49,885 nt of DNA from Phycisphaerales bacterium (GTDB lineage Bacteria > Planctomycetota > Phycisphaerae > WQYP01). Shown piece by piece: positions 5,644 to 49,885 of the stretch. The stretch is from contig DAIDJN010000079.1 of NCBI GenBank assembly GCA_027451365.1, forward strand, positions 1 through 49,885, given 5' to 3'. The position numbers were made by a program, and so were the translations under genes. Within the stretch, counting starts at the first letter, position 1. Each line of letters starts with the position of its first letter. The notes under the pieces are model-generated. The model was not told the origin of the DNA, ran no database searches, and saw only the letters and a program-made list of their open reading frames with translations.

Positions 5644-6310
5644 GGTGGCCACAAGCACAAGACCAGGTTAACGGGCGATTGGCGTTATTCGTATATATGG
5701 AAAACGCATTCTGCCCCGTTTGCTTATAACCGTTCAATTTTTCTGTTGCAGCGGTATGGCTTTTGGCGATAAACTGGCATCAGCGGTGTCGCAAGAATAC
5801 TGCGTTTTTCAATTGCGTGCCAGCGGTCGTTTCAGGCCCAAGGCGACTATCGAACTCGTTGAATTTAAAGGCGGATTGGCGGGCGATGAAATATCTTGTT
5901 TTTCTTCTGTTGAAGACTCATAATAACTGATGGATTGGCCGATAATGAGGGTGCGTCTATCGCGTACGCTTGACAGAACCGACTGGTTGATTGAATATGC
6001 GTAAGACTTGAGCCTCCCGGCCAGCAATAAATTGGATTGAAGCGGGTCGGAGTGGAACTGCGCTGTCGGCGCGAAAATCAGTCGTACCGGGCGTTTCGGA
6101 CGGTTCCATGACGGTTACATGGCGGTTACATGGCGTCGGTCATTCTGCCGGACTGGCGTATTACCAAGAGGTGTGAGGGACGGATCCGAATCGGGTGGCA
6201 CACAATATTTTTCAATGTTGACGGAGTTAAATCGCATGGCTTTCAAGAGAACAGAGATCAAAAACGCCGGCATCCAGCGGAAATTGACCAATTGTGGAGG
6301 GTCTTGGCCG

Positions 6311-7840: not shown

Positions 7841-8193
7841 GCTTTTTCGGAGGCGTTGGACGCCAGGCAAAATGAATCGGAATCAGCCCGCTCTGACGTA
7901 ATGGCTGGTTGGCTTGGCGGTTCGGTAAACCGATTCGTCTGGAGCCGTATGGATTGCAGCCGCTCTTGGCATTATTGCCCAGGTGAAATTGGGACCTGCT
8001 GAAAAGAGTCTGGATCAGCGGCAGCCCGGAGGAATTCCACTTTTCTGGAGTTATCGGACTCCGGTCGCCTGACTTCGGAATTTGTTGCCGCTGCCAACGG
8101 TCTTAATTTAAACGTATAATAGAAGACGATATCTAATTCGTCGTGACGAAGTCAGCGAGCTGGCCCGTTCAGAGAACGGGCGGATGGGTATTT

Positions 8194-9204: not shown

Positions 9205-10067
9205 ACCATAAAACTTCCCTTCACCGTTTCGCATTACTTTCCACGCTGGTTATTCTGGCGGGGGGGGCGTTTTCCCTGGCGCTGGCCGAAAAGGCGTTTC
9301 ATGTGGTTCTCGTCAAAGAACGAACTCCGCTGCAATCGCCGCTTCGCAAAATTCCCAAGACCCTGGGCGATTTTGTGGTTCGCCATGGCTGGGTAGACCA
9401 ACACTTAAGCTCAGAAACCGTCCAGGTGCTGGGAACGCGCACCTATCTGATGCGGGAATATTGGTACAAAAAGATTCCATTCGGTGAATCCGGATCAACA
9501 ATCAAACTGAACATCAATTTTTATCCCACCAATTTTGCCACGCCGCACGTGCCCAATGTCTGCTGGAACGGCGTGGGGCTTAAACGCGTCAAAGATTCCA
9601 TTATTTCCGTCAAGGATGTACCTCACGCCTACGGCAAGCCTGGGCCGATTCCAATGCGATTTCTTTCCTTCTCCGGAGCGAGCACTGAAACCGGCGGGCT
9701 GCCGCTGTTGATCCAGCCTCATGACGGTGGCCGCTATTTAAACACCGCGTATGTGTTTCAGGTGGATGGCCGCTATGTACCCAATACACAGCAGGTCAGC
9801 GCTCTTTTCTGGCGACAATCAAGCAAATTTGGGTACGATGCCAAAATTGAAGTTGATGTGGAAGGCTTGTGCACCCGAACCCGGGCGTTGCGGGTAATCA
9901 AGGCTTTTATGCGAAGTGCCCTTCCGTCTATTGAACGTTGCCTGCCCGATTGGAAAAAATTAAATTCGCCAGCCGCGGCTGGTCCCGACCACGGAAAAAA
10001 AGCCGGTTCGGGAAGCGCGTCGGCGACCGCTTCCAGTTCGCATGATGCACCGGGAAACGCGAACTGA
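9201..10067 (+). CDS. Exosortase-associated EpsI-family protein
   Basis: ATGA overlap with the exosortase gene; N-terminal TM; motifs LSSETVQVLGTRTYLMREY and PHVPNVCWNGVG (H-x-P-x-x-C motif of EpsI). Confidence 0.82.
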   Translation: MNHKTSLHRFALLSTLVILAGGAFSLALAEKAFHVVLVKERTPLQSPLRKIPKTLGDFVVRHGWVDQHLSSETVQVLGTRTYLMREYWYKKIPFGESGSTIKLNINFYPTNFATPHVPNVCWNGVGLKRVKDSIISVKDVPHAYGKPGPIPMRFLSFSGASTETGGLPLLIQPHDGGRYLNTAYVFQVDGRYVPNTQQVSALFWRQSSKFGYDAKIEVDVEGLCTRTRALRVIKAFMRSALPSIERCLPDWKKLNSPAAAGPDHGKKAGSGSASATASSSHDAPGNAN

Positions 10068-10098
10068 TTCTCCAAAAGTGAATTACTAAGGAATAGAA

Positions 10099-14784: not shown

Positions 14785-14799
14785 AATTTTACATGAGTG

Positions 14800-14838
14800 C
14801 TTTCACGCTTGCGTGAAAGTTTAATCGTCCCGTATAGT
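14800..14838 (+). promoter_or_regulatory. Putative sigma70 promoter for wzc with an overlapping palindromic operator
   Basis: Perfect inverted repeat CTTTCACGC-TT-GCGTGAAAG (14800-14819) overlaps TTGCGT (-35-like, 14809-14814); TATAGT (-10-like) at 14833-14838; 18-bp spacing. Confidence 0.5.
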
Positions 14839-14903
14839 AAGGGTTTGTCTGAGGGTTGTCTCTCAATAGAGATGGCTGTTTTACGAATGAATCAGGGGAA
14901 GTT

Positions 14904-17129
14904 ATGACGCAGTCCAATGCGATAGTGCCGGTTGTCCCACAATCTGGCGCCAATGAAGCGACATCCGGTCCAAAACTTGGTTTTGTACTTAAAAAGCATC
15001 GAGTCCTGATTGTCGTGGGGACCGGGCTTGGATTCCTGGTGGCATTAGGATTGTTCTTCGCGCTTCGAAAATATTTGCCATATTACCGTGCGGTGTCGGT
15101 GCTGCAGGTGCTTCCGCGTACACCCAATCCGTTGCAATCTCATACCATTAATTACGGGACCGCAAATGGCGAAATTAAGCGATTAATCAATTCCCAGATC
15201 ATTATTGTCCGAAGCCCGGTGGTACTTAACGAAGCACTTCAGACTGCGGCATTTCAACACAATTATAAATTTCCAAACGATCCGGCCCGCAAAAGCACAT
15301 GGCTGGAGGCCAATCCGGTTTCGCCTTTGCATGAGCTCAGGAAAGATCTGGTTGTGGAACCGGAGCCAGATTCCAACGACTTTACCATTTCACTGGAATG
15401 GCATGACGCCCGTGAAACCGCGGCGCTGGTCAACGCCGTCACCAACACGTATGTTCAGTACGTTCAAAATCTTGAACAGACTTCGTTAAACCGCGAAGCC
15501 CGCGCGGTCGCGGCCGCGCAGGCCCGGGTGGCTGCCAAGGTACAGGCCCAGCAGCGCGAGTTGGAACTGTATCGACGTTCGCATAATGTCCCCGGTCTTA
15601 TCGAACGCGAAGCGATTCTCGAGGCGACACTGGCGAATCTCAGTCAACTGGTGACTAAAACTCAAATTAATGCTCAGGCCGCGCAGTCAAATTATGAATC
15701 AATTAAAAAGCAGGTTCAAAACAATACGCTTCAGCTTTCGCCGCGCATGCAGGAACTGGTCAACGATGATCCGACGTTGCGAAGCCTGACGCTTAACCTG
15801 CTTGCCTTAAAGCAGGAAGTTGCGGTTTCTAAAAGTACACTTGGCGCGGACCACCGGTCTACAATTGCGCTGGAAATTCGCGAAGCCAGCGTGCAGAAGC
15901 AGATTGATCGGCTTCGACAGAAACTTAAGGTTCGCTCCCGCCTGCAGATGCAGCAGGGCGCGAAATCTGAGGCTGAGCAAGCTCTGGCAGTTGCGGTGGA
16001 AACGCGCAAGCGTCGCGATGAAAAACAACGTGAAGTCAGCGATCTTGATGATGCACTGGCCAAATTTCGCAACCAACAGGCTCTTCTGTTAACCCAGGAA
16101 AAAATGCTCGCGAGCCTGACCAAGCGGGCCGACCTTTTTAATCTGCGCAGCATGCATAACGCATCACGGGTGGAATTGCAGTATCTGGCGTCTGTTCCGG
16201 AACGATGTGCTTTTCCGCGGCTCAAGCGATTCCTTGTGCTTGGGCCGATTCTCGGTCTTCTGGCTTCATTGGCGCTGGCCTATCTGTTGGAATTGACCAA
16301 TACGCGCGTCCGCACACCGCGCGACATCAGCGGAATTATGCGGCTTCCCTTGCTAGGTTTCATCCCGGACCATGCCGACGATACCATGCTCAGTGGTAGT
16401 CCGATGACTTGTGTTCGGACCAGCCCGGCTTCCATGACGGCCGAATCGTTCCGGCAAATTCGCGGCCGGCTTGCCGTGGTGCATGGCGAAAAGCCGCTAC
16501 AGACACTGCTGGTAGCCAGTTTTTCCCCGGCGGGTGGCGCTTCAACTGTGGCCAGCAATATCGCCAATGGCATCGCCCTTAGCGAACTGCGAGTGCTGCT
16601 TGTCGATGCGAATTTCTATCGCCCGGTATTGCAGACAATTTACTCCAATATTCCATCGGTTGGCCTGGCTGATGTGCTGACCGGGCGCTGCACGCTGGAA
16701 CAGGCCGTGGTCCCCTGTGCGGACCTGCCAACACTGCACCTGATGGGTGCCGGCGCTCGGTCCAAGGCTCCCAATGAGATTACTGAACACAGGGCCTTTC
16801 CTGACCTTATTGCGCAGCTTCGCGGCCGTTATGACATGATTATTTTTGATGGCGCGCCGCTTACGTTTGTGTCAGATTCCATTAATCTGGCTTCTAAAGT
16901 CGACGGCGTGATTGCGGTCGTGCGAGCTGGCCAGATCAGTCGCGGCACCGTAGCTCGTATTCGTGATCAACTGTCCCAGGTTCGCGCCAATTTGGTGGGA
17001 ATTGTGCTGAATGCGACCCAAAGCTGGAACGCCGGCTACTTCAAGGAAAACTATCGGACGTTCTTCGAATATGCCAGCCAGCAGGGTTCCGCTGGAGCAC
17101 AGCGGAATCTGCCGCGTGGAAAATCCTGA
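14904..17129 (+). CDS. Wzc/GumC-type polysaccharide co-polymerase with a degenerate BY-kinase domain
   Basis: TM-coiled coil-TM layout, then VRTPRDI...LPLLGFIP and ESFRQIR; P-loop region ASFSPAGGAST, VLLVDANFYRP, MIIFDGAP; C-terminal GYFKENYRTFFEY. Confidence 0.88.
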   Translation: MTQSNAIVPVVPQSGANEATSGPKLGFVLKKHRVLIVVGTGLGFLVALGLFFALRKYLPYYRAVSVLQVLPRTPNPLQSHTINYGTANGEIKRLINSQIIIVRSPVVLNEALQTAAFQHNYKFPNDPARKSTWLEANPVSPLHELRKDLVVEPEPDSNDFTISLEWHDARETAALVNAVTNTYVQYVQNLEQTSLNREARAVAAAQARVAAKVQAQQRELELYRRSHNVPGLIEREAILEATLANLSQLVTKTQINAQAAQSNYESIKKQVQNNTLQLSPRMQELVNDDPTLRSLTLNLLALKQEVAVSKSTLGADHRSTIALEIREASVQKQIDRLRQKLKVRSRLQMQQGAKSEAEQALAVAVETRKRRDEKQREVSDLDDALAKFRNQQALLLTQEKMLASLTKRADLFNLRSMHNASRVELQYLASVPERCAFPRLKRFLVLGPILGLLASLALAYLLELTNTRVRTPRDISGIMRLPLLGFIPDHADDTMLSGSPMTCVRTSPASMTAESFRQIRGRLAVVHGEKPLQTLLVASFSPAGGASTVASNIANGIALSELRVLLVDANFYRPVLQTIYSNIPSVGLADVLTGRCTLEQAVVPCADLPTLHLMGAGARSKAPNEITEHRAFPDLIAQLRGRYDMIIFDGAPLTFVSDSINLASKVDGVIAVVRAGQISRGTVARIRDQLSQVRANLVGIVLNATQSWNAGYFKENYRTFFEYASQQGSAGAQRNLPRGKS

Positions 17130-27289: not shown

Positions 27290-28486
27290 ATGCGTCCACA
27301 TTCTTTCATCGCGTTGTGTGCCCTGGCTGCGGTTTCCGCCGTCGGGCTGGTTTCACCGGTAAAGGCCAATCCGACCGTGGCAGCGGGTTATAGTCTGACT
27401 GCTTTTGCATCGCCATTTGCCGATGCCGGACTTAATCAGACCAATGTAGCCGGCACCGCGCCCGTGACACCAATGGTTTCATCGCCGGATGATATTGCTA
27501 TCAGCGGCGGTAACGTATTTATTGGCTGGGGCAACAATGTTCCAGGAGATGGCGGCAATGGCGGTTTGAGCACACTTGCGGAATACAATTTGAACGGCAC
27601 GCTGGAAAAGTCGTTCAATATTCAGGGGCATCTGGAGGGCATTGCGGTGGATCCGGCAACCGGATTGGTCTACACAGATCAAAACGAAGATGGCAACTCT
27701 TCCATGACGATTGTGAACACTGTCACCGGTAGTCAGGCTCGATTTGGCTATCCGAATCCATCCGCACATGGCGGCGGCTTTGACGGTCTGCAATTGCTGA
27801 ATGGAAATCTGTATGCCAGTGCCTCAAGTCCGAATACTGTGAACGTAAGTCCAAGCAACCCCAATGGCACAAATGTCAGCCCGCTCATTTATCAGGTCAC
27901 GGCCAATACGGCCAACTACCCATATAACGCGATTCCGACGGGAATTGTAAATGGCAATGCCCAGGCCACGAATCTGAATAATGGCCAAACGGTGACCATG
28001 AACAATTTTGATCCGGATTCCCTGAACGTCACACCATCGGGCAGTCTGATTGTAACCAATGAAAGCGGTGCCCAGCTTACCATTGTGAGCAATCCGGGTG
28101 CGACCAGCCAGAGCGTGGGCGTGCTGAATCTGACCAATACCGTCACCGGTGCCGCCGCCAGTGTGGATGACACTGGTTTTGCCACCAGCGCCAACGGCTC
28201 CCTGCTTTTTGCCGATGGCAAGACGAATGTCGTTTATGCCCTGACGGCCATTGGCGGTTTTTCCGCTGATCAGGCCTTTTCATCAGACAAAACCAATCAC
28301 ACGCTGGATGCCCTTAACTTTTCCACCGGCGCGTTGACACCCATTGTGACCGGGTTGGGCAGTCCGGCGGGTATTGCGTTCAGCAATACGCCGGTCGGAA
28401 CGCCGGAACCCGCTTCGCTGCTGACATTTGCCGCGGGTGGCGCAATTCTGCTGCTGGCGCGGCGGCGAATGAACGCGGCACGATAA
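27290..28486 (+). CDS. PEP-CTERM sorting-domain surface protein (beta-propeller-like, Asn/Thr/Gly-rich)
   Basis: Signal peptide (…SPVKA); C-terminus TPEPASLLTFAAGGAILLLARRR = PEP motif, TM helix, basic cluster; AGGAG RBS. Confidence 0.92.
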   Translation: MRPHSFIALCALAAVSAVGLVSPVKANPTVAAGYSLTAFASPFADAGLNQTNVAGTAPVTPMVSSPDDIAISGGNVFIGWGNNVPGDGGNGGLSTLAEYNLNGTLEKSFNIQGHLEGIAVDPATGLVYTDQNEDGNSSMTIVNTVTGSQARFGYPNPSAHGGGFDGLQLLNGNLYASASSPNTVNVSPSNPNGTNVSPLIYQVTANTANYPYNAIPTGIVNGNAQATNLNNGQTVTMNNFDPDSLNVTPSGSLIVTNESGAQLTIVSNPGATSQSVGVLNLTNTVTGAAASVDDTGFATSANGSLLFADGKTNVVYALTAIGGFSADQAFSSDKTNHTLDALNFSTGALTPIVTGLGSPAGIAFSNTPVGTPEPASLLTFAAGGAILLLARRRMNAAR

Positions 28487-39675: not shown

Positions 39676-40696
39676 CCCTGCCAGATGGAATGCCACGGCT
39701 AAATCAGGAAAATGGCCGGTAATTAACGCTGGTAGAAGACGGCCGGTCCACATTGCGGGATTTGACACTTGAGACCTGCTTGACGACAAGCGCATTTGCG
39801 TCCGCGTTTTGAAGAATAAATTGCACCCCGCCGCCACTGCGAACAATATCTGCCATCCCTGGCTGCGTAAAGCGGATTCCCGCCGCCGTGCTTTGCAAAG
39901 CGCGGACTATCCTCATGACTTTAAATTCGCGGAAACGAGATACTGGAAAACTGGTTCCGGTTTGCAGCGGCGAAACCCCCGGCTTTGTAAAGAAAATAAA
40001 TGGCTTCCTGAAGGTCGGAAAGTGATCTTTCAAATCACAATTTGAAGGGCGTTTCATAGCCTCGTCAGGTTGCCATTCATGACGCGAAAGCAGCGTACTG
40101 GGCTTTAATGTGGTGACAATAACCGTTGAAGGAGTGTAAACATTATCATAAAAGTGACAAGCGTAAGATTTCAGCGTTTGCTCTGGTCTGAACATTACAT
40201 ATGCTGATCAAGGCAGGGGCTAAGTAGGTCCGGTCCGCGTGTCTGGCCAGCCCGTCAATCACGCGTCGGTGAACTGTAAGCGAAGACTGGTCAGATAGAA
40301 TCGCGTCTTGCGGTATAGATTGTGGGTTTGTAAAAATGCCGCACAGACTGCGTGGAATATTTCGCCTTATTGCCGGGGGTTGCGATTCCTTCCTGCATTG
40401 ACTGTGTAACAGGCTTCATTTCGGCTATTGCCGTCCGGGCCATCCGGTGTTTTTCACTGCCGCCGGGACACATCGCCGCGCCGATCAGAGGTGGCCAGCA
40501 TGCCGGCCGTATTCCGAAAGCCAAGGGCGGCCAATTTGCCTATACAGGCATTTATTCGTACAAAATTTGTAGTCATAGTCATAACCCTGCGGCGCACTTT
40601 CAATTTTAACCGTTTGCCCGCACAATACGCTTGCAAAATCAATCGCGGGATTTGTCCGATGTGGCGGGGTGCCGTTGCGTCTTTCGAAGGCGGTAT

Positions 40697-41626
40697 ATGT
40701 CTGGCCCTGATGTTCCAGTACTGTTTGAGCTTGCCGGGGTGACCAAAACCTACGGCAGTGTAACCGCCTTGGATAATCTTTCCATTCGCGTGCCGCCGGG
40801 CGCAACTGGCCTGCTTGGCCCCAACGGATCGGGCAAAACCACCATGATCCGCACACTGCTAGGCCTTATTCGACCGGACAAAGGCGGCGGAACAGTGTTC
40901 GGCATGGATATTCTGCGCCGCCAACTCGATATTCGCCGCCAGATCGGATTCTCGCCGGAAGATGAGTGTTTGTTTCCCGGAGTACAGGGAATTGAATTTG
41001 TGGCGTATGCCGGGGAACTTGTTGGTATGCCCTCCACCGATGCCATGCAGCGCGCCCATGAAGTGCTGGACTACGCCGGGTTAGGTGAGGTGCGCTACCG
41101 CAAAGTTGAGTCCTATTCCTCCGGCATGAAACAGAGGCTTAAACTTGCGGCGGCAATCGTGCATGACCCTAAACTGCTGATTCTGGATGAGCCGACCAAC
41201 GGCATGGATCCCGCCGGTCGAGAAGACATGCTGCGACTGGCCTGTGATCTGGCTAATAACAAAGGTATGAGCGTGCTGTTTTCCAGCCATCTTTTGCCGG
41301 ATGTGGAAGCTGTTTGCGGGCATATAGTGGTGCTGGCCGGCGGCCGGCTGCTGGTGCAGGGGGGTATTCGCGAACTAAAACAGGCACATGCCGGCAGTTT
41401 TGAATTGCGGCTCAAATCCGAGGATGAAGATTTCGCTCGGCGCATTTCCGGCCTGGGCTGTGACGTGCAAATACGCGGCGATATGCTGCTGGTAAAGATT
41501 CCGCCGGGGCAAACCGCTGCGCTTTTGTGGCGGCAGGCCGCCGCGGCCAACTATCAGATTCGACATTTGCGGCCGCAGCGCAGCACGCTGGAAGAAGTGT
41601 TCCTGAAAGCCGTGGAGCAAACCTGA
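40697..41626 (+). CDS. ABC transporter ATP-binding protein (ABC-2/exporter type)
   Basis: Walker A GPNGSGKTT, signature YSSGMKQR, Walker B LLILDEP, H-loop SSH. Confidence 0.93.
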   Translation: MSGPDVPVLFELAGVTKTYGSVTALDNLSIRVPPGATGLLGPNGSGKTTMIRTLLGLIRPDKGGGTVFGMDILRRQLDIRRQIGFSPEDECLFPGVQGIEFVAYAGELVGMPSTDAMQRAHEVLDYAGLGEVRYRKVESYSSGMKQRLKLAAAIVHDPKLLILDEPTNGMDPAGREDMLRLACDLANNKGMSVLFSSHLLPDVEAVCGHIVVLAGGRLLVQGGIRELKQAHAGSFELRLKSEDEDFARRISGLGCDVQIRGDMLLVKIPPGQTAALLWRQAAAANYQIRHLRPQRSTLEEVFLKAVEQT

Positions 41627-42786
41627 TGCCGATCATGGAACAGGGATATCAACATTGGTCCGGTCGTCTTTCGGGCCATTCGTGGCGCTGGCTGGCGATT
41701 ACGCGGCATGGTGTGCGCATTCAGTTGCGTAACCGGTTTTTACGCTACGTGCTGTTTGCTGCCTGGACACCGGCGCTTTTGCTGGTGGGAATGCTGTCAA
41801 TCTGGGGGTTGCTGGAGCGGAAATCCAATCTGGTCGCCACCTTTGTGGAATTCATGCGATTTATGAATCCAAATGTCATCGCAGACCCGCGTTATTACCG
41901 GGTGGAAATCTGGCGACTTTCCTACGGCTATTTCATGCACGTGGAACTTTTCTTTTCCATGATTCTCATTCTGCTGGTTGGGCCGGGACTGATCAGTCAG
42001 GATCTGCGGGTCAATGCGCTGCCTCTTTATTTTTCGCGACCGCTGCGCCGTGTGGATTACTTTCTGGGCAAGCTGGGGGTCATAAGCTTTTTTCTTGGTA
42101 TGGTCACTATTTTGCCGACACTTATCGCCTACCTGTTCGGACTGCTATTTAGTCTGAATCTGCATGTTGCGGTGCAAACGTTTGGTATTCTCGTCGGCAC
42201 GCTGCTTTATGGTTTGATTATCTGCCTGTCCGCAGGCACCCTGATGCTGGCGCTTTCCGCCCTGTCGCGCAATTCGCGCTATGTCGCGTTGTTCTGGCTG
42301 GGACTTTGGTTTGTTAGCAGTGTCATAAGCTCGGTACTCGCGGGAGTGCACCATGAGGAAATCCGCCATGCTTATTTTTATAATCGGCCTCCGGCGCAAA
42401 TCGGCGCTGCGAATCCGCAAGGTGTCGCAACAGAGCCTGGCGATCGCATGGCCTCCGGTCTTCCACAGGATGGAATGGCCAATGCCCGACAATATTGGCG
42501 GAATTTTCAACTTCAGCGGCTGCGTGATTCACAAACGGACTGGCGGCCAATGGTATCCTATACGGCTAATTTATTGCGAATTGGTGCCCATTTGCTCGGC
42601 ACGAATCAGGCTTGGGAAAAGCTGGCAAAACTGGAACCGGATACATGGCGAAGGGAGCGGTTGCTGACCCGGTATGCCGGGCCGCGCTATCCATGGTATT
42701 GGTCAGCCGCGGTATTGGCTGGTCTTTTTGGACTTTCATTATGTGTTCTCAAATGGTCAATACGGTCGCTGGATCGGCTGAAGTAA
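41626..42786 (+). CDS. ABC-2 type transporter permease
   Basis: TGATG coupling to the ATPase gene; multiple TMs; GPGLISQDLRVNALPLYFSRPLRRVDYFLGK motif. Confidence 0.88.
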   Translation: MPIMEQGYQHWSGRLSGHSWRWLAITRHGVRIQLRNRFLRYVLFAAWTPALLLVGMLSIWGLLERKSNLVATFVEFMRFMNPNVIADPRYYRVEIWRLSYGYFMHVELFFSMILILLVGPGLISQDLRVNALPLYFSRPLRRVDYFLGKLGVISFFLGMVTILPTLIAYLFGLLFSLNLHVAVQTFGILVGTLLYGLIICLSAGTLMLALSALSRNSRYVALFWLGLWFVSSVISSVLAGVHHEEIRHAYFYNRPPAQIGAANPQGVATEPGDRMASGLPQDGMANARQYWRNFQLQRLRDSQTDWRPMVSYTANLLRIGAHLLGTNQAWEKLAKLEPDTWRRERLLTRYAGPRYPWYWSAAVLAGLFGLSLCVLKWSIRSLDRLK

Positions 42787-43709
42787 AACCAATCGTCGCC
42801 TTCCATGACGCAAGTAAATGGTATGGCAATGTCATTGGTATCAACAAGCTGACGCTGCGCATCATGCCGGGAATAACCGGCCTGCTTGGCCCCAATGGCG
42901 CTGGAAAGTCCACTCTTTTGCAGATGGCGACCGGCCAGCTTCGCCCGAGTCAGGGAAAAGTCGAAGTGCTTGGACAGCGCGTCTGGAACAATCCGCCGTT
43001 GAATCAGCGAATCGGTCTTTGTCCAGAGCAGGATGCCCTGTACGAATGGATGACCGGAAAAGATTTTGTCGCCACTTGCGCCCGTCTGGCCGGATGGAGT
43101 CGCCCCGATGCGGCGCGCAAGGCCGATGACACACTTGAAGCTGTCGGTATGACACGCCACAAAAGCCGACCTGTCCGCGGATATTCCAAGGGCATGCGCC
43201 AGCGCACCAAATTGGCGCAGGCCCTGGTCAATGATCCGGATGTGCTTTTTCTGGATGAACCGATGACCGGCACCGACCCGGTGGCGAGGCGCGATCTGAT
43301 GGACATTGTTCAACAACTTGCCGCGCAGGGGAAAAGTGTGGTCGTTTCCAGCCATGTGCTGTATGAAGTCCAGGCCCTGACGCCCAATATTATTCTGCTT
43401 AACCGTGGCCGCCTGCTGGCCCAGGGCCATATCCGCCAGATTCGTGACCTTATGGATCAGCATCCGCATCATATTGTGCTGGTTTCCAATAATTGCCGGG
43501 CGCTGGCGGCGGAACTTTTTACCCATCCAGACGTGGACGGCATCCGACTTATCCCCAAGGATTCATCCCTGGTGGTCGAAACCCGTTTGCCCGACGCGTT
43601 TTACGCCCGCCTGCCGCAACTGGCGGCGCAGGGAGACTGGACCATTGATGAGGTCTATTCACAGGATGACAACCTTGACGCTGTATTCCATTACCTGGTG
43701 AATTCATGA
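42753..43709 (+). CDS. ABC transporter ATP-binding protein
   Basis: GPNGAGKST, YSKGMRQR, VLFLDEP, SSH. Start approximate. Confidence 0.92.
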   Translation: MVNTVAGSAEVKPIVAFHDASKWYGNVIGINKLTLRIMPGITGLLGPNGAGKSTLLQMATGQLRPSQGKVEVLGQRVWNNPPLNQRIGLCPEQDALYEWMTGKDFVATCARLAGWSRPDAARKADDTLEAVGMTRHKSRPVRGYSKGMRQRTKLAQALVNDPDVLFLDEPMTGTDPVARRDLMDIVQQLAAQGKSVVVSSHVLYEVQALTPNIILLNRGRLLAQGHIRQIRDLMDQHPHHIVLVSNNCRALAAELFTHPDVDGIRLIPKDSSLVVETRLPDAFYARLPQLAAQGDWTIDEVYSQDDNLDAVFHYLVNS

Positions 43710-44608
43710 CTTTCCAATCTTCAGAGCCTGTGTCCGCGCATACGGAAATTGCAAGCCCCGCCGCGCGGTACCCTGTTACAAAATTCCGGCCGGCCCTGGC
43801 GTTGTATGCGCTTAGCCTTCGGCAGCATCGGCACGGTAAACGCTGGCTGATCATGCTTGTCCTTATGCTGACACCGGCCCTTATCGCCATTCTATCCCGC
43901 CTGACGGATTCCGGTGTCTCGCCAACAGTGCTGGAATTTAACCTGGCGTTTATGTTCATTCCCCAGGGGCTTCTGCCGCTGCTGGCGCTGGTATACGCGT
44001 CAGGTATTCTGCACGATGAACAGGAAGAGCAAACAATTACATATCTATTAATGCGTCCGCTGGCCAGATGGACGATCTATCTGGCAAAACTTTTGGCCGC
44101 CATCACCGTGGCCATAATTTTGGCGGTGTTTTCAATTCTGGTGACGTATGCGGCCATTTTCGCTGGTACCGCCAGCCATGGCGTCGTTATGCGGTGCCTG
44201 GATGCCTGCCTTATTCACGCTTTGGCGGTTGTTGCGTATTGCTGCCTGTTCGGATTAATGGGTTTGCTGACCCGCCGGGTATTAATCGCCGGTATCATTT
44301 ATATCGCGCTGGTAGAAGGACTTCTGGCCAATATTCCATTTGCCATTCGGCTGATTACAGTCATCTATTACACGCGGTTGATCGCGTACCGCACGCTGCC
44401 TTTTGTGGCAAATACCGGTTATAGGGTCCACGATTTGGCTGCTGACACATGGCAGTTCAATACGCTAGGTGATCCAAAACTGCAAAACTATCCGCATTCC
44501 TGGTTGTGTGTCCTGATCCTTGCAAGTGGGGCGGTGGTTTGCAGTGTCCTGGCCGCATTCATGTGTGCCGGCCGCGAATTTTACGTAAAAACACCAGAAA
44601 AAACCTGA
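43706..44608 (+). CDS. ABC-2 type transporter permease
   Basis: ATGA overlap; TMs; DEQEEQTITYLLMRPLARWTIYLAK motif. Confidence 0.88.
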   Translation: MTFQSSEPVSAHTEIASPAARYPVTKFRPALALYALSLRQHRHGKRWLIMLVLMLTPALIAILSRLTDSGVSPTVLEFNLAFMFIPQGLLPLLALVYASGILHDEQEEQTITYLLMRPLARWTIYLAKLLAAITVAIILAVFSILVTYAAIFAGTASHGVVMRCLDACLIHALAVVAYCCLFGLMGLLTRRVLIAGIIYIALVEGLLANIPFAIRLITVIYYTRLIAYRTLPFVANTGYRVHDLAADTWQFNTLGDPKLQNYPHSWLCVLILASGAVVCSVLAAFMCAGREFYVKTPEKT

Positions 44609-45094
44609 TCCGCCAAACCGGACAACGGCCGAAATCCGGATGCGGCAGGGCCTGCATGTGATTGTATAATGTACATATATTGGCAATTAAAGTAGTAGAC
44701 CGTAGTTCCCGGCACGAAAAGTGGAAAACCCCTGTATTTACGGTGGTGTCCTTTGCCTTTGCCATTCACCCTGACTGTGCCATTTGCATTTTCACTGTCA
44801 TATCCGGTGATGGGTAATGAAATTTCAGTCCATTTGTTTTCCAGGCCTGAGCTTCGATCAGATGAATCGCACTGGCTGGTTTGGAAAGGTGGATAACGGC
44901 GGTATGCGTTGGAATAAATTTACGGAAGTTTAAATCGTGGTCAGAATATTGATACTTGGATGCGTGAAAGACCCGATCCCCGGCCACCGTCGCAATACCA
45001 GCGGCCTCTTAAAGAACAGAGTATCTGCGTATTTCGCACAACCAGACACGGCCTGCTGACGAACCAAAGTGAACGCGGCGTGTCGGGATTGACC

Positions 45095-45282
45095 AAGGAA
45101 GGTCGCCACGCAATGGAATACCAACCACCAAATGGATTGGACTTTTCACGCCGGACCAATGCGGCCACGGTTAATCCGCTCTCCGGCAAAAGCGACAGGA
45201 CATGATGCCAAAATGCGCGACGATTTTCATTGGATAACCCTTCCCGCTGTTTTGCTTTTGACTCCGTGAAATTGCTCAACAA
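45095..45282 (-). pseudogene. Probable IS66-family TnpA (HTH accessory protein) remnant
   Basis: RRAFWHHVLSLLPESGLTVAALVRRE...AWRPSL resembles the TnpA pattern W...SGL(S/T)...(F/Y)CRRE...WR..L. No TnpB/TnpC or terminal repeats seen. Confidence 0.45.
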
Positions 45283-45384
45283 TCACAGACTCAGAATATT
45301 CGCCACCAGAAAAATCCCGCCAGATGGGATTCGCGGGACGTTTGCGCGATACGTGGTGACGACCCATCAACGAAATATTTCCCC

Positions 45385-46074
45385 ATGTCGGTACCATCGG
45401 TTAAACTTTTGTGCATGTCAGCGGCTGAAGAAAAAATAATACTTTCCCGGATCAGGGCGGGCCTTGCCTGGCTGACGCCGCTGCTTTTTATTTTAGCGGC
45501 TTTGGTCGCCCTGGCTTCTGGCCTGGCTGGTCTGTCCAGCGCGTCGGCGAAAACGCTCGGCGTCCCGCAAAACCGTGCCTGGGGAAATTCCGCAGGAATG
45601 CTCCAATCACGTCCGGTTCAGACGCCGCAAAGCCTTGAATTGCAACGGGAAAACTCCATTGGCCGGTACGATTTGGCGCTGGATGATACTCTTGCCGCAG
45701 AGAGTACAGCAGTTCGAACGAACGCGGACTTGGTACAGGAAATCGGCACGCGTGCTGACGCTTGGGCTACGCGGCAGGGCCTGACCGGCACACCCCAACA
45801 GCTCGGGACGTGGGAGCATACTTACGCCAGAGACCTCCTGGAACGATACCAAAGCCTGTTTGGCGACCGAGGGTTGGTGACTGAGCGTTCGTGGCTTGGT
45901 AAGAATCCCGCTGCCTACGGAACCCCCGCTAGCGTTCGATTGGACGTTTTCGAGCCTAACACAGGCACCGTATGGGACTACAAGTTTGGCGTAACGTCGA
46001 TGAGCGCAGCACAACGGGCGCGAATCATGGCGAATGTACCCGGCGTGACTTCAATCACGGAGGTGCGCCCATGA
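45385..46074 (+). CDS. Short polymorphic toxin A: shared signal-peptide-like leader + C-terminal PD-(D/E)xK (restriction endonuclease-like) toxin domain
   Basis: Leader LTPLLFILAALVALASGLAGLSSASA|KT...QNRAW...RYDLALDDTLAAES; C-terminal GTWEH...TERSW.G...YGTPASVRLDV......VWDYKFG...Q, a pattern seen in Rhs-type toxin tips. Start is 45385 or 45415. Confidence 0.72.
   Translation: MSVPSVKLLCMSAAEEKIILSRIRAGLAWLTPLLFILAALVALASGLAGLSSASAKTLGVPQNRAWGNSAGMLQSRPVQTPQSLELQRENSIGRYDLALDDTLAAESTAVRTNADLVQEIGTRADAWATRQGLTGTPQQLGTWEHTYARDLLERYQSLFGDRGLVTERSWLGKNPAAYGTPASVRLDVFEPNTGTVWDYKFGVTSMSAAQRARIMANVPGVTSITEVRP
45470..45589 (+). repeat. Toxin-leader repeat, copy 1 (120 bp; 107/120 identical to 48047-48166)
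   Basis: Manual ungapped alignment from GGCTGACGCCGCTGCTTTTT to CCGTGCCTGGG.AAATT gives 13 mismatches. Confidence 0.95.
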
Positions 46075-46775
46075 AGAATGCCGTTGTTCTCACAAAATCG
46101 AACGAGAAGCGGATCACGGATGACTGGCAGCAGCAGATTCCGAGCCTTGGCGACTACCGGCCGAGGCGTCTGCTCAGGCGAGTTGGGCCGCTATTGGTTG
46201 GCGTCTGCCTGGAGCGCGATTCGAGCGGCAATAAGTACAAACCGACTTTCCATGTGCACTGCCTGGCGAAGGACGCTCCGGCCGTATTTCTTACCCTTCT
46301 GACGCAGCTTCGTTCGGAACATTCCGGCGGTCCTGATTTTATTCAAGTGCGATTTCACGAAGAGAGATACAAGGAAGCTGCCGCGCGGATGATCCACCAG
46401 TCGCTATTGTCACTTTCAGGCGACCTTCGACTGGAGCAGGTGATGGATGCTTACCGTCACTATATGGCTACGCCGATGGGCAAGCTGCAGGCAACGACCC
46501 TTTACCGCGACATGATTCTTTTATCGGCCTGGGCGGGTGATCAAGCCGGTGCGCTTAAGTTGTTGGATGCATGCCTTCACATCCGTAGTGACACTGAGTT
46601 CCAGCACCTAGGCGGCCGCGCTGCGTTTGGAGCCGAATGCCAGAAATTGATCGAGCACCCGGATTTGGTCCAACAGATGGTGGATTCACAGATTGCGGCC
46701 TTGGGCGTCGAAAATTTGCCGACAGCTAATCTTATCTGGAAGAATTCCGATACTGGCGGGCTCATGGCAAGGTAA
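46071..46775 (+). CDS. Putative cognate immunity protein for toxin A
   Basis: ATGA overlap with the toxin stop; GGAGG RBS at about 46059; 234-aa cytoplasmic protein; classic toxin-immunity gene order. Confidence 0.68.
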   Translation: MKNAVVLTKSNEKRITDDWQQQIPSLGDYRPRRLLRRVGPLLVGVCLERDSSGNKYKPTFHVHCLAKDAPAVFLTLLTQLRSEHSGGPDFIQVRFHEERYKEAAARMIHQSLLSLSGDLRLEQVMDAYRHYMATPMGKLQATTLYRDMILLSAWAGDQAGALKLLDACLHIRSDTEFQHLGGRAAFGAECQKLIEHPDLVQQMVDSQIAALGVENLPTANLIWKNSDTGGLMAR

Positions 46776-46818
46776 ATAGAGTTGGCATCCCGTTTTTTTG
46801 TATCCGCTTGTTTCACCC

Positions 46819-46905
46819 TTACTTCGGTGGCATCCTGTCATTCCCAGGCTCACGCAATGCGTACGCTGCGATCCGGGGCATGTTCGCATCAATAAGAAAA
46901 CGCAT
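46819..46905 (-). pseudogene. Truncated DUF5615 (PIN-like/Mut7-C-type) toxin N-terminus
   Basis: Own translation: MRFLIDANMPRIAAYALREPGND then a stop after 28 aa, matching the MRFLxDxNxP...LR..G.D start of DUF5615 proteins; GAGG RBS upstream. Confidence 0.55.
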
Positions 46906-47319
46906 CGGGCCTCGTCGTAAAATGTGTCACACGGGTAACGGGTGAAACTGTTCTTGTTCAACAAGCTTGCCGATGCTGCGATATCACCGATCCCAGTCTT
47001 CATGGCGCGATGACCCTTTGTCATTGCGGCCAATCGCATGGTAAAATGTCCGCCAATGAATGGCATTGAAGAAAAAGTCCGTTCCAGGTTGTCTGACCAC
47101 GGATATGCGATGTTGGAGGCCGTAATGGTAACGTGGCGGATCGTGGTGGCTGGCATGCTGGCTGCGTCCGTTGGTGGCTTGGCGGGTGTCGCCAGGGCGA
47201 GGCCACATCCGGTCCGCCCCCGGCCGGAATAGAGTCGCGTAAAGTGTCACGCACCGGTTCGATAGTTCGGGCAGGGCGTGGCCACCGGGGTTGCCATGGA
47301 TGTGGTAGAATAACTTTGT

Positions 47320-47793
47320 ATGAAGAGATCGGTTTACATTGAGACTACGATCCCGAGCTTTTACTATGAAGTTCGATCCGAGCCGGAGATGATCGCCCGG
47401 CGGGAAAGCACTCGGCGGTGGTGGCGCAAAGAGCGCCCGCGCTACAGTTTGCACAGTTCGGCATTCGTAATCGGTGAGTTGCAGGAAGGCCAGTACCCGG
47501 CGCGATCCGAAGCCTTGGCCATGGCCGAGTCCCTGAGCCTTCTTGAAATCGTCCCGGCGATCGAGGAGATCGTGTCTGTTTATTTACGGCGGAAACTCAT
47601 GCCGCTGGGGGATGCGTATCACTTGGCCATAGCGTCCTATTACGGAATGCACTTCGTGCTGACATGGAACTGCCGGCACCTGGCCAATGCCAATAAAGTC
47701 CGGCATTTGCAACTTGTCAACACCGAACTTGGTCTGGCGGCACCAATTGTGACAACACCGGACCTTTTGCTTACGGAGACTGACCATGACTGA
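47320..47793 (+). CDS. PIN-domain (VapC-like) toxin
   Basis: SVYIETTIPSFYY, SAFVIGEL, DAYHLAIAS, FVLTWNCRHLANANK, PIVTTPDLL. Confidence 0.88.
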   Translation: MKRSVYIETTIPSFYYEVRSEPEMIARRESTRRWWRKERPRYSLHSSAFVIGELQEGQYPARSEALAMAESLSLLEIVPAIEEIVSVYLRRKLMPLGDAYHLAIASYYGMHFVLTWNCRHLANANKVRHLQLVNTELGLAAPIVTTPDLLLTETDHD

Positions 47794-47962
47794 ATCCGAA
47801 GATGACGTGGTGGTGGAACGGGTTCGCGCCTCGCGGCGGCGGATCGTTAAACGCTGCGGGGGGGACAAGCATCGGATGTTTCGCTGGGCGAAACGGTTGG
47901 AAGCGGCGCATAAAGCCCGCGTGATCGGGTTTGAAACCTCCGGCGGCAGTCGTGGTGAATAA
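47786..47962 (+). CDS. Small putative antitoxin downstream of the PIN toxin (58 aa; not in ORF track)
   Basis: Own translation: MTESEDDVVVERVRASRRRIVKRCGGDKHRMFRWAKRLEAAHKARVIGFETSGGSRGE*. GGAG RBS; overlaps the PIN gene end; D.VVE.VR..R..I...CG.D pattern seen in partners of this PIN subfamily. Confidence 0.7.
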   Translation: MTESEDDVVVERVRASRRRIVKRCGGDKHRMFRWAKRLEAAHKARVIGFETSGGSRGE

Positions 47963-48000
47963 GCCACTGAAGATGCGGTTGGGAAAGCAGGATTTCAGCT

Positions 48001-48801
48001 ATGCATGGCACCGAACATCGGACTTTTTCTTTACGCCTTATCGCCGGGCTGACGCCGCTGCTTTTTCTTTTAGCCGCTTTAATCGCCCTGGCTTCTGGCC
48101 TGGTTGGTCCGTCCAGCGCGTCGGCCAAAACGCCTTGCACCCCGCAAAACCGTGCCTGGGAAAATTGCGGCAGTGCCGCCCGGCAAAAACTCCGCAACAC
48201 AGTTCGCCCGGCCCAACAGGAACACCTGACGTTAATTGGCCAAATACAGTGGCAGGCGACCACCAAAACCCATAAAACCTCCGGCTCCGCCGGTGGTGCA
48301 ACGGCAATACCCGCGCCTCACGCCGGAATTCCAAGCACGTTCCAGCAGTTGGTCATCTACCCCATCCACCCTACCGTCAGCCATTTTGGCCGCGACCCAC
48401 CGGTACGATTCCGGCGGACCATCCGATACGACCGCAGCGCCCGGTACGGCGTCGCCGTCAGTGTTTTCGTTGCCGCAGAGAGTGCAGGGACGTTGCGCGA
48501 AGGGTCATTCTCGATAGGGGATTGGTCTGGATATCCTCAGGGCGCTCCTCAGCCACAAGGGCCATTCAGGCTTCTTGAGGGGGAGGAGTTTGAAACAGCC
48601 AGAGATACGGCCAATGCTGCCAACAAGGCTATCCATGACGCCGACCCCTCGCTGGCCGGACAACACATACACGAGGTTCAGCCGGTGAAGTTTGGCGGCA
48701 GCCCAACCGATCCTGCCAACAAAATCCCGCTATCGCCACAGGCTCATCAGCCGTTTACGAATTGGTGGAACGCCCTAATGAGGAACATCAGAGGTGGTTG
48801 A
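48001..48801 (+). CDS. Short polymorphic toxin B: shared leader + C-terminal HNH-like nuclease toxin domain
   Basis: Leader LTPLLFLLAALIALASGLVGPSSASA|KT...QNRAW...RYGVAVSVFVAAES; toxin GSFSIGDWSGYP...GPFRLLEGEE...HIHEVQPVKFGGSPTDPANKIPL...H...WW (H-N-H-type pattern); followed by SMI1/KNR4. Confidence 0.78.
   Translation: MHGTEHRTFSLRLIAGLTPLLFLLAALIALASGLVGPSSASAKTPCTPQNRAWENCGSAARQKLRNTVRPAQQEHLTLIGQIQWQATTKTHKTSGSAGGATAIPAPHAGIPSTFQQLVIYPIHPTVSHFGRDPPVRFRRTIRYDRSARYGVAVSVFVAAESAGTLREGSFSIGDWSGYPQGAPQPQGPFRLLEGEEFETARDTANAANKAIHDADPSLAGQHIHEVQPVKFGGSPTDPANKIPLSPQAHQPFTNWWNALMRNIRGG
48047..48166 (+). repeat. Toxin-leader repeat, copy 2
   Basis: See 45470-45589. Confidence 0.95.
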
Positions 48802-49198
48802 TATGCGCCGATTTTTAGACCGTTTGAACCGTCGCCCCGGCGCGACCGACGCCGCGATCGCCGAGACCGAGAAGCAATTGGACGCGAAGCTTCCGACGGA
48901 GTACGTGGAGTTCCTGAATCTCACTAACGGGGGCGAGGGCTTCATTGGCAAGGAGTACATGATCCTCTGGAGTATCGAAGAATTGGTCTCGATGAATCGG
49001 TCGTACGAAGTTCAGAAGTATGTGCCGGGGATTTTGATCTTTGGATCGAACGGCGGCGGCGAAGCCTACGGATTCGACACCCGAACCCCGCAATGGCCGA
49101 TTGTCCAAGTACCTTTTGTGGGGATGGAGTGGCGCTATGCGAGGCCAATAGGTGAGTCGTATAGCGCGTTCTTGGGACGCCTGCATGAGACTGAGTAA
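48794..49198 (+). CDS. SMI1/KNR4 (SUKH superfamily) immunity protein
   Basis: PGATDAAIAETEKQLDAKLPTEYVEFLNLTNGGEG...LWSIEEL...IFGSNGGGEAYGFD; overlaps the end of toxin B. Confidence 0.9.
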   Translation: MVDMRRFLDRLNRRPGATDAAIAETEKQLDAKLPTEYVEFLNLTNGGEGFIGKEYMILWSIEELVSMNRSYEVQKYVPGILIFGSNGGGEAYGFDTRTPQWPIVQVPFVGMEWRYARPIGESYSAFLGRLHETE

Positions 49199-49438
49199 AT
49201 GAACGAATCAAATCGACAACGACGGCTGGCTGCCCCAGGTTATGAGGGAAAGGAGATATTCGAGATCACGCCGGTGATGCTCGGCGGTAGTCCGACCGAC
49301 CCTGCGAACAAGACGCTGTTGAGCAGGGAGGACCACATCAAAGCCGTGGTTTACTGGAACAAGATTATTGCGGACCTCCGCGCAACCGGAAGCAAACCCG
49401 GGCTCATGGCATCCATGAAGAGAAGTCAAGTGTGGTGA
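49199..49438 (+). CDS. Small protein homologous to the C-terminal half of toxin B, lacking the first putative catalytic His
   Basis: KEIFEITPVMLGGSPTDPANKTLLSREDH...YWN aligns with toxin QHIHEVQPVKFGGSPTDPANKIPLSPQAH...WWN. ATG immediately follows the SMI1 TAA. Confidence 0.75.
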   Translation: MNESNRQRRLAAPGYEGKEIFEITPVMLGGSPTDPANKTLLSREDHIKAVVYWNKIIADLRATGSKPGLMASMKRSQVW

Positions 49439-49788
49439 CAATATTTTTTTTGTGGCCGCATCGGCGGCCATTGTCTCAAATTGAATCAAAGCCCGGGGCA
49501 AGGGCCTGCGGCGGCGGCGAGGAATATGGACGATCACGGGGTATGCCAAGCATCCATTCGGCGTCAATCCGGGTTTGCCGGGATCGCGTCACTTCTTTTA
49601 TTTCGAGGCCGGCCCCATTCAGGATGGCGAGGTCGATCAAGTCGCCTCACGCCTTGCCAGGGGCCCAAGGACTTTTTGTGGGTTCTTCTGGGTTCCACGC
49701 GGCTGCCGTCCCGACACGTCGGGATTGCGCATTGACGCACAATTGGTCAGTGGTGAGGCTTTTCTTTTTAGCCGCCCGTTGTCCGGAA

Positions 49789-49885
49789 TTATTCCGTGCG
49801 TTGAGTTGTGACCTTGAGCGTTTCGGCGAGTTGGCCGGGAGTGAGGATGGTCAGGTTGGGGGCCAGTCGCCGCAGGCGTTTGGCT
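49789..49885 (-). CDS. 3' end of a gene running off the window; possibly another PIN-family TA toxin
   Basis: Own translation: ...AKRLRRLAPNLTILTPGQLAETLKVTTQRTE*; the (I/L)LTP-helix ending is typical of PIN proteins, but only 31 aa are visible. Confidence 0.35.
   Translation of the reverse strand, partial: AKRLRRLAPNLTILTPGQLAETLKVTTQRTE

Follow-up and report, generated by a model that had tools for sequence, protein, structure and literature searches.

A lineage-restricted family of small leader-bearing, probable toxin-immunity cassettes in Phycisphaerales

Two toxin-like genes that begin with a common leader and end in unrelated C-terminal domains (tips) lie close to one end of a 49,885-nucleotide contig of an uncultured Phycisphaerales bacterium (GCA_027451365.1, contig DAIDJN010000079.1). 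This stretch, referred to below as the window, is the whole of contig C79 of a genome assembled in 88 contigs (4.06 Mb, 93% complete). The cassettes to which the two genes belong share one architecture, recur within this genome and in related ones, carry diverse tips, are restricted to one bacterial lineage and are coupled to a downstream gene. It is quite likely that they represent a lineage-specific family of polymorphic toxins and their immunity proteins, in which a Sec signal peptide, a short module, a variable tip and an immunity gene are combined. The initial annotation, made from the letters of the DNA, had proposed a distinct leader-defined toxin family, and the recurrence, tip diversity, immunity genes and lineage restriction described here support this proposal. 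Its claim of novelty went too far, since polymorphic toxins of the Sec/type II secretion system (T2SS) class with a lineage-specific N-terminal domain have been described since 2012 (PMC3482391). The distinctive traits of the present family are its very small size, a constant part of 50 residues that is fixed in length and apparently non-globular, its modular linkers and its Planctomycetota host.

Recurrence and host range of the leader

Both open reading frames (ORFs) were found at the places and with the lengths first proposed (Table 1). The DNA segment that they share, originally given as 120 base pairs, is real and slightly longer: a repeat search returned a single long direct repeat of 127 nucleotides (nt), 45466-45592 versus 48043-48169, with 88% identity, and the N-termini of the two proteins align with 33 identities over 58 positions (BLASTP, E 1e-4). 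Chance is excluded because this core recurs in frame in eight ORFs on five contigs of the genome (two on C79, three on C9, and one each on C40, C76 and C45). Among these copies it is 84-93% identical, which makes it the most constant DNA of the cassettes. The two window proteins had also been said to re-converge at a motif RY...AAES further downstream; for the pair alone the similarity is not significant (8/20 identities, E 0.30), and it becomes convincing in the context of the family, where the two alanines of the AAE junction are conserved at 90% or more in two alignments (A1, A4). The true start of ORF 1 is probably the ATG at 45415, because the corresponding Met11 is kept without exception in 17 proteins and in 10 aligned DNA copies. 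BLASTN identity of cassette 1 with other cassettes sets in at 45346-45368, and the alignment of ten DNA copies shows a conserved block that ends in the invariant ATG. Rfam has no match in positions 40000-49885 at E<=1, and the conserved 5' regions thus hold no known RNA element.

The leader is not limited to the two copies of the window. Besides the eight copies in the source genome, an index search with residues 1-110 among 5.8 billion proteins returned 23 proteins of 143-338 amino acids (aa), and a profile built from 31 leaders, searched against 1.84 billion cluster representatives, matched 100 proteins at E<=1e-3 and 57 at E<=1e-10. All 100 are 78-352 aa long and there is no long carrier among them. 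The search for further leaders that the initial annotation had called for has recovered a family. Among the genomes sampled, the leader is confined to one Phycisphaerales family. It is present in 11 of the 44 other genomes of this family (12 of 45 with the source genome), which represent 5 of 17 genera. Other families of the class yielded a match in one genome of 356, a weak one to the hydrophobic part, on a 1056-aa frame, and only two further leader loci were found in 185,579 species genomes. No model of Pfam or NCBIfam matches the leader; the best ESM Atlas score for it (0.75) is within noise, and the eight window proteins compared with NCBIfam gave no meaningful match.

Plan of the toxins, their tips and immunity genes

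The leader starts with a charged n-region that is variable and comes in at least four types (MSAAEEKIILSRIRAGLAW.., MVKCPPMKGIEEKVRS.., MHGTEHRTFSLR.. and MSAAEE.AILSGKP..), followed by a hydrophobic core and then by G-P-S/T-S-A-S-A directly before K-T. The sole invariant column in 31 of 31 aligned leaders is the Ala at position -1. A 12-residue window with a mean Kyte-Doolittle hydropathy of at least 2.19 is found in 95 of the 106 family proteins; each of the 11 that do not show it is either an N-terminal fragment or carries a long N-terminal extension. In the AlphaFold2 model of toxin 1 residues 3-34 are helical. These are features of a Sec-type signal peptide that would be cleaved by signal peptidase I after A-x-A. 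A Tat signal was rejected, there being no conserved twin-arginine motif. A lipoprotein signal was rejected as well, since no lipobox is conserved and only some copies have a Cys three residues past the boundary between A-S-A and K-T.

Behind the predicted cleavage site the proteins follow a common plan: the new N-terminus bears P-Q-N-R-x-W-E-N, the linker closes with ..G-R-Y-D-x-A-x-x-D-T-L-A-A-E, and the tip comes next. Distant subfamilies keep the same plan in the form ..A-S-A-S/L-T-P-G-A-x-E-N-R-V-W-Q/E-K .. G-Y-D-Y-A-V-D-x-L-L-A-A-E. In the module of toxin 1, residues N63, N68, G93, R94 and Y95 are invariant, and A104 and A105 are conserved at 90% or more. The core N-R-x-[WGR]-x-[NKHI] is present in 78 of the 100 profile matches. 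In 49 of these (49 of the 63 that have both motifs) the junction A-[AS]-[EK] lies exactly 41 residues past the Asn; 15 of the 78 have no junction, being short fragments or having other linkers, and 14 have other spacings. As 49 matches share the 41-residue spacing, what had been called a short linker is a fixed-length module rather than a loose spacer. A linker of ~105 residues, which also ends in AAE, is found in toxin 2, in the C45 cassette, in cassette B of C9, in two copies of genome G038 and in proteins P0009 and P0061; that of toxin 2 is 88-89% identical in DNA to those of C45 and C9 cassette B over ~440 nt. An Ala-rich linker (genome G012) ends in the same AAE. No RHS, CdiA, LXG/WXG100, PAAR-VgrG or Hint domain was found in the two window toxins, six further copies of this genome, 12 relatives or the 100 profile matches. 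The largest member being 352 aa long, the view that these are small toxins with no carrier domain has held, as has the view that a Sec-like signal followed by a short linker is the sole trafficking candidate, for which signal-peptide features and the fixed module are now on record.

Variable C-terminal domains on a constant N-terminus, the hallmark that had been claimed from two proteins, are evident throughout the family. A junction can be recognised in 73 proteins, and BLAST sorts their tips into 57 clusters, 47 of which are singletons; because the protein library had been pre-clustered at 50% identity, the diversity looks somewhat greater than it is. The leader stands in frame upstream of toxin domains: 17 of the 100 profile matches carry a toxin-type Pfam domain and none carries a non-toxin domain. 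TNT, Tox-REase-7 and Tox-HNH-HHH occur twice each among the 17, as does a weak DUF4258 match, and the others include AHH, LHH, Colicin-DNase/WHH, TreTu_C, Ntox43, Ntox46, an MsddA-like deaminase and weak matches to ParB_N and GIY-YIG. In the source genome, the tip of C9 cassette B is a Tox-REase-7 domain (Pfam, 4e-18), with a HEAT-repeat protein encoded behind it, a fragment of EndoU (Pfam) is present in the C76 copy, and the C45 cassette consists of a toxin, an immunity candidate, a leaderless TNT tip (NAD-glycohydrolase family, 9e-32) and an 84-aa ORF.

Tip 1 recurs at the C-terminus of the RHS-repeat proteins P0024 (73% identity) and P0025 (65%) and is also present on P0026, in which a signal peptide is joined directly to the end of an Rhs core. 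The junction before the tip in P0024 is ..AAAES, as in the leader toxin. Relatives of the tip retain the pattern E..R-L-D-V..W-D-Y-K, and in the AlphaFold model (predicted local distance difference test, pLDDT, 70-89) R-L-D-V and W-D-Y-K lie on adjacent strands, which suggests a PD-(D/E)xK nuclease. In the VIA comparison R.SwaI (Z 4.7, root-mean-square deviation (rmsd) 4.0, 105 aligned) and EcoRV (Z 3.9) both rank below an unrelated best row. A Foldseek search of the toxin 1 and toxin 2 models against the Protein Data Bank (PDB) gave no hit at E<=0.001.

The gene that follows toxin 1 starts at ATG 46071 and overlaps the toxin stop (46072-46074) in an ATGA. It was claimed that each toxin is followed by an overlapping gene; this stands for cassette 1, whereas in cassette 2 it depends on the start, which may be GTG 48794 (8-nt overlap) or ATG 48803 (1 nt past the stop, 48799-48801). 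The first immunity candidate has 53 homologues of ~223 aa and belongs to no Pfam or NCBIfam family. Two of these homologues (P0111, P0120) come from contigs whose lengths (10014 and 24499) equal those of the contigs of P0024 and P0025, which suggests that they may adjoin tip 1 on these Rhs carriers. Prediction of a complex between tip 1 and the immunity candidate gave a score of 0.92 against 0.05 for the best control, a mark that was reached by 116 of 157 solved complexes and by 2 of 215 mismatched pairs; contacts agreed between runs at 97% or more, and the pLDDT of the partner was at least 91. The models thus support binding of tip 1 by its neighbour. The immunity candidate and the protein downstream of the C40 cassette may possibly be remote homologues (BLASTP E 0.097, not significant; hhalign probability 44%, E 2.4e-4).

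Tip 2 is probably an HNH nuclease, judging from its sequence. It contains the motif H-I-H-E..G-G-S-P-T-D..N-K..H..W-W-N, all six matches of a profile of the tip and its relatives to PDB sequences are HNH nucleases (E 0.013-0.41), and one relative (L051) matches PF01844 with E 0.0059. The region is modelled by AlphaFold with pLDDT 78-89; in the VIA comparison toxin 2 is closest to an HNH endonuclease from a phage (Z 4.7, rmsd 5.2 over 76 aligned residues), which is too low for a fold assignment, and an ESM Atlas score of 0.91 to HNH-named clusters is a lead only. The next gene had been identified as SMI1/KNR4 (SUKH), and it does match PF09346 well above the curated cut-off (E 9e-17, 62.3 bits versus 25.4, profile positions 1-124 of 125). 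SUKH is described as a recognised immunity family of polymorphic toxin systems (PMC3113570). The pair of tip 2 and SUKH gene also occurs in two other families of Planctomycetota, on a Hint-domain carrier (G162) and on an Rhs-core carrier (G198). Neither of the two immunity proteins of the window has an N-terminal hydrophobic segment.

Given that the cassettes are small overlapping toxin-antidote pairs, one might see in them intracellular or periplasmic addiction or defence modules, similar to toxin-antitoxin systems, rather than weapons against other cells. A PIN-like ORF (47320-47793) in the same island would fit this view, and so would the ORFs upstream of the L020 cassette, which we take to be of the HicAB type. 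However, classical toxins of such systems have no signal peptide, while TNT, Tox-REase-7, AHH/LHH/WHH, Ntox43/46 and TreTu_C are domains of secreted polymorphic toxins and SUKH belongs to their immunity families, so that we consider this explanation highly improbable.

Delivery, exchange of parts and known systems

In the reading that we favour, a polymorphic toxin family led by a Sec signal, the toxin would be exported by Sec, and signal peptidase I would remove its signal peptide after A-x-A. The mature toxin would begin with K-T-x-x-x-P-Q-N-R-x-W-E-N and continue through a linker to ..RYD..AAE; this linker, mostly the fixed 41-residue one and sometimes that of ~105 residues or the Ala-rich one, would apparently be non-globular. 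The post-signal module of ~50 residues may carry the information for release from the producer, for entry into the target, or for both, a role for which it is the best candidate because it is the only constant part of the mature protein. The tips (nucleases, NADases, a deaminase) would act on cytoplasmic targets, and a translationally coupled, signal-less immunity protein would block the tip in the cytoplasm of kin. With the targets in the cytoplasm and a signal-less immunity protein there, the mature toxin would have to cross the envelope of the target cell. Diversity would be generated by recombination at the signal-peptide core and at the AAE junction, with tips being exchanged with Rhs and Hint carriers.

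It is conceivable, though we regard it as doubtful, that the module is a self-sufficient 'escort' with which a nuclease of ~19 kDa, secreted by Sec in free form, would leave the producer and then pass both membranes of a planctomycete target cell. The module, which has two conserved motifs centred on aromatic residues (N-R-x-W-E-N and G-R-Y-D), would be disordered alone and would bind envelope proteins in the way of the disordered translocation regions of colicins or of the SitA escort domains. If this were true, no smaller delivery module would be known among polymorphic toxins, the module would offer a handle on protein import through the unusual Planctomycetota envelope, and any orphan Rhs-type tip could be re-armed simply via recombination at AAE. 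If the module is a mere spacer, the family only adds another lineage-specific leader to the known Sec/T2SS class.

Several observations weigh against a delivered toxin family of this kind, or against parts of it. In a diderm, a Sec signal takes a protein no further than the periplasm. Neither a step of export through the outer membrane nor a partner gene or a receptor was identified, and the islands differ in their flanks. The pLDDT of both linker types is below 50, which gives no structural support for a binding role. The two window copies differ in 8 of the 39 core residues of their translations, i.e., the pairwise constraint is modest. Tip 1, like tip 2, has no Pfam match of its own, the best VIA match of toxin 1 is to the unrelated chimallin (Z 5.5, too low for a fold assignment), and the assignment of tip 2 to HNH rests on marginal E-values. 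There are also degenerate copies: cassette C of C9 is 139 aa long, and the EndoU fragment of C76 is fused to sequence that looks non-coding. Finally, in genome G038 (C316, 12439-14943; L063) half a leader, consisting of the n-region and hydrophobic core and ending before A-S-A, is fused in frame to an 834-aa ORF that has no Pfam match. This fusion is probably a recombination product.

The fact that no outer-membrane export partner was found would also suit contact-dependent toxins that stay attached to the producer, with the signal serving as an uncleaved anchor that keeps the protein in the inner membrane or passes it to a route of surface display, and with AAE as the processing site at which contact releases the tip. 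The hydrophobic h-region is indeed long (~18-20 residues in many copies), and the junction is kept across three unrelated linkers. On the other hand, the invariant small residue at -1 of A-x-A is a signature of signal peptidase I, and a mature protein of 174 residues held in the inner membrane could not reach across the envelope. We therefore consider tethering unlikely.

The Tox-REase-7 tip occurs on three different linkers (P0020, C9 cassette B and G012) with an identical joint, AAEN followed by P-x-T-G-T-A-L-A-R-Q-L-G, and the n-regions MHGTEHR, MVKCPPMKG and MSAAEEKI have each been seen with both short and long linkers. From these sequences we infer that two handles, the ~127-nt core and the AAE junction, would permit the exchange of n-regions, linkers and tips. 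Leader cassettes share islands with Rhs C-terminal cassettes (C9:1246-1641; G038:C316:753-2609), and five leader ORFs lie within 13 kb on G038:C316. Leaderless orphan tips are found near cassettes at 49199-49438 of the window, on C45 (the TNT tip) and at G038:C316:17473-17781 (a member of the tip 1 family). The alternative offered in the initial annotation, that the leader re-arms Rhs-type tips, agrees with the presence of tip 1 on RHS proteins, of tip 2 with SUKH on Rhs and Hint carriers, and with the shared islands.

This proximity raises the question whether the cassettes are silent spare parts, orphan modules of Rhs islands whose core is mainly a recombination handle and not an export signal. 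They adjoin Rhs C-terminal cassettes and have tips in common with Rhs proteins, several copies are truncated, and contigs break at leader repeats, as at the ends of C79, C45, C76 and C9 (four contigs of the genome end within ~2.3 kb of a leader cassette). However, the three Rhs ORFs of this genome have neither the leader nor an AAE junction ahead of their tips, so that the handle would have no partner on the Rhs genes; for the same reason AAE was rejected as a general Rhs junction. In addition, every cassette keeps its start codon and open frame, with 26 of the 27 leader places in the 45 genomes of the family being devoid of an internal stop, and the signal-peptide features are kept across subfamilies that are ~30-50% identical. 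The spare-parts explanation thus appears improbable.

If the cassettes are secreted toxins, their closest known relatives in kind are those of the Sec/T2SS class, which comprises toxins with lineage-specific N-terminal domains after the signal peptide, namely MAFB-N, Microscilla-N and APD1/2 (Zhang et al. 2012, PMC3482391). The same work predicted further lineage-specific N-terminal domains (PMC3482391). As that class is described, it has in common with the leader family a signal peptide, a constant clade-restricted N-region, variable toxin domains, a downstream immunity gene and several paralogues per genome. MafB of Neisseria is defined by MAFB-N/DUF1020, to which the leader has no match; its constant mature part is described as a globular domain, in contrast to the ~50 residues of the leader family that are modelled as non-globular, and it has mafA upstream, whereas leader cassettes have no conserved adjoining partner gene and their upstream genes differ between islands. 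The host phylum, Planctomycetota, is unlike the hosts of MafB, Microscilla-N and APD.

A second comparison is with the SitA toxins of Myxococcus, lipoproteins that are delivered by outer membrane exchange (PMC5562445) and whose entry route is decided by an escort domain and not by the tip (PMC8546572). The model proposed here would give the N-R..AAE module a corresponding role. As described, SitA and the leader family alike are small Sec-dependent toxins with a family-defining N-region, polymorphic C-terminal nucleases with cytoplasmic action and downstream immunity genes (PMC5562445). Both have many copies per genome and are restricted to one order, as far as SitA has been described. The SitA signal, as reported, is of type II with a lipobox Cys, whereas the leader has A-S-A before K-T and no conserved Cys, and no sitB-like gene stands upstream of the leader cassettes. 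We know of no TraAB-type exchange in the Phycisphaerales lineage. Rhs/YD-repeat toxins have with the leader family common tip-immunity cassettes, shared islands and leaderless orphan tips. The leader toxins differ from them in having no RHS repeats, DPxGL core or shell, in having their own start codon and signal peptide, and in size (78-352 aa versus hundreds to thousands of residues). Nuclease colicins and S-type pyocins resemble the leader toxins in being free secreted nucleases with a tightly bound immunity protein, and the N-terminal region of colicins is partly disordered, with short motifs that recruit envelope proteins of the target. Colicins, however, have large receptor-binding and translocation domains, have no Sec signal and are released by lysis proteins, and the HNH core of tip 2 is the only homology of the leader toxins to colicins that was found. 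The leader family therefore fits the Sec/T2SS kind and is not MafB (no DUF1020), SitA (no lipobox) or Rhs. In the literature on polymorphic toxins in Phycisphaerae and Planctomycetes, no description of the leader was found.

Interbacterial toxins are almost unstudied in Planctomycetota. The combination of signal peptide, N-R-x-W-E-N and AAE provides a compact marker for toxin-immunity pairs in Phycisphaerales metagenomes, and most of the tips (the 47 singleton clusters) and immunity proteins (e.g., the 53-member family of the first candidate) are outside described families. Tip cassettes can be seen moving between Rhs, Hint and signal-peptide carriers. The constant mature part of ~50 residues makes the family a tractable system for finding the minimal information that a toxin needs for leaving one diderm and entering another.

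Other features of the window and of the islands

Table 1. Positions of the cassette features in the window.
Feature	Position	Strand	Basis or remark
Conserved 5' region of cassette 1, just upstream of probable start	45346-45414	+	BLASTN identity, DNA alignment
ORF 1 (toxin 1)	45385-46074	+	229 aa
Toxin 1 signal peptide, Met11-Ala55 of 229-aa ORF	45415-45549	+	Predicted cleavage after A-S-A
Toxin 1 post-signal module, K56-E106	45550-45702	+	P-Q-N-R-A-W-G-N, 41-residue spacing, GRYD..DTLAAE junction
Tip 1, S107-P229 and stop, candidate PD-(D/E)xK nuclease	45703-46074	+	On RHS-repeat proteins
Immunity candidate 1, 234 aa	46071-46775	+	ATGA overlap with toxin 1 stop
Remnant of another cassette, upstream region and first 16 codons	46840-47086	+	94% identical to C9:5227-5473
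PIN-like ORF (47320-47793) and overlapping 58-aa ORF (47786-47962)	47320-47962	+	Between remnant and toxin 2
ORF 2 (toxin 2)	48001-48801	+	266 aa
Toxin 2 signal peptide, M1-A42, ending ...SSASA before KT (predicted)	48001-48126	+	Shared 127-nt core; aligns with other leaders
Toxin 2 long-linker variant, K43-E160, ending ..RYDRSARYGVAVSVFVAAE	48127-48480	+	DNA identity with other cassettes
Tip 2, S161-G266 and stop, probable HNH/EndoVII nuclease	48481-48801	+	Profile, structure comparison
Immunity 2, SMI1/KNR4 (SUKH-1)	48794-49198	+	PF09346
Partial HNH-like ORF, 79 aa	49199-49438	+	Related to C-terminal 63 residues of tip 2
Repeat to contig end, probable upstream region of a further cassette	49402-49885	+	Matches C45, C62

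The small ORF behind the SUKH gene is 40% identical to residues 202-264 of tip 2 and has I-F-E in place of H-I-H-E, the His-x-His being lost. The same small HNH-like ORF follows SUKH in a genome of a different Planctomycetota family (G198:C88:537-680; L050/L052). Its retention after SUKH in two families suggests that it may be functional rather than a decaying orphan. The remnant between the two cassettes is of the MVKCPPM.GIEEKVRS type (MVKCPPMNGIEEKVRS); it has its ATG at 47038, is cut off after 16 codons and is similar over 247 nt to a stretch of C9 that runs into the start of cassette B. The PIN-like ORF matches the Pfam PIN model with E 7.5e-4, under the curated cut-off, and need not belong to the toxin system; the corresponding stretch of G038:C316 (~3660-4100) has no PIN part. 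The repeat at the contig end is 98% identical to C45:1-483 (reverse complement) and 93% to C62:170-424, and in protein P0011 this sequence reads on in frame into a further leader.

Two gene pairs, each coding for an ABC ATPase and an ABC-2 permease, stand one after the other directly upstream of the toxin island (40631-44608). They were rejected as a dedicated exporter, as other islands have different neighbours and there is no C39 peptidase domain. The genome also encodes a type VI secretion system sheath protein VipB/TssC (E 9e-135, C41:79537-80445), one secretin (C71:42799-43368) and a 4994-aa Rhs-repeat open frame (C82:79292-94276), with nothing tying any of the three to the toxins.

In the islands of other contigs, a gene for the RNA 2'-phosphotransferase Tpt1/KptA (E 1.5e-34, C9:3259-3831; L003:2501-3070) lies inside the toxin island of C9 and overlaps the end of the immunity candidate of cassette A. 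The immunity candidate of C45 (C45:1131-1544; L011:1066-1476, minus strand) matches domain IV of EF-G (PF03764, E 2.2e-5, barely over the cut-off), and because of this match the C45 tip may act on the translation apparatus. The C40 cassette is flanked by direct repeats (C40:24277-24540 and 27300-27563) with ORFs that we take to be OrfA fragments of IS3-type transposases; similar repeats are located beside the C45 cassette. Cassettes of the Rhs C-terminal type (C9:1246-1641; L063:753-2609 and 9269-9643) share a second N-terminus, MVA.AE.I...RRFL..G.R.FRA, which may be another constant handle.

In the window itself, ARAGORN found no tRNA. A promoter and terminator scan of 44600-49885 was uninformative, giving 2 promoter-like and 7 terminator-like sites where 3.1 and 6.5 were expected from shuffled sequence. 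In a search of sequencing runs, four DNA runs shared only 5-8% of the sampled words, and no RNA run was listed. A short repeat at 45183-45346 is 73-85% identical to sites beside unrelated genes on C43, C31 and C25, and a 75-nt repeat unit at 44696-44770, which is not a tRNA, is ~82% identical on C48, C84, C78 and C13. Further away, an exosortase locus (6119-17129) contains genes for a polysaccharide export protein, the exosortase EpsH (8143-9204, E 9e-53), a DUF3485 protein, a 1561-aa TPR protein and an AAA-domain protein.

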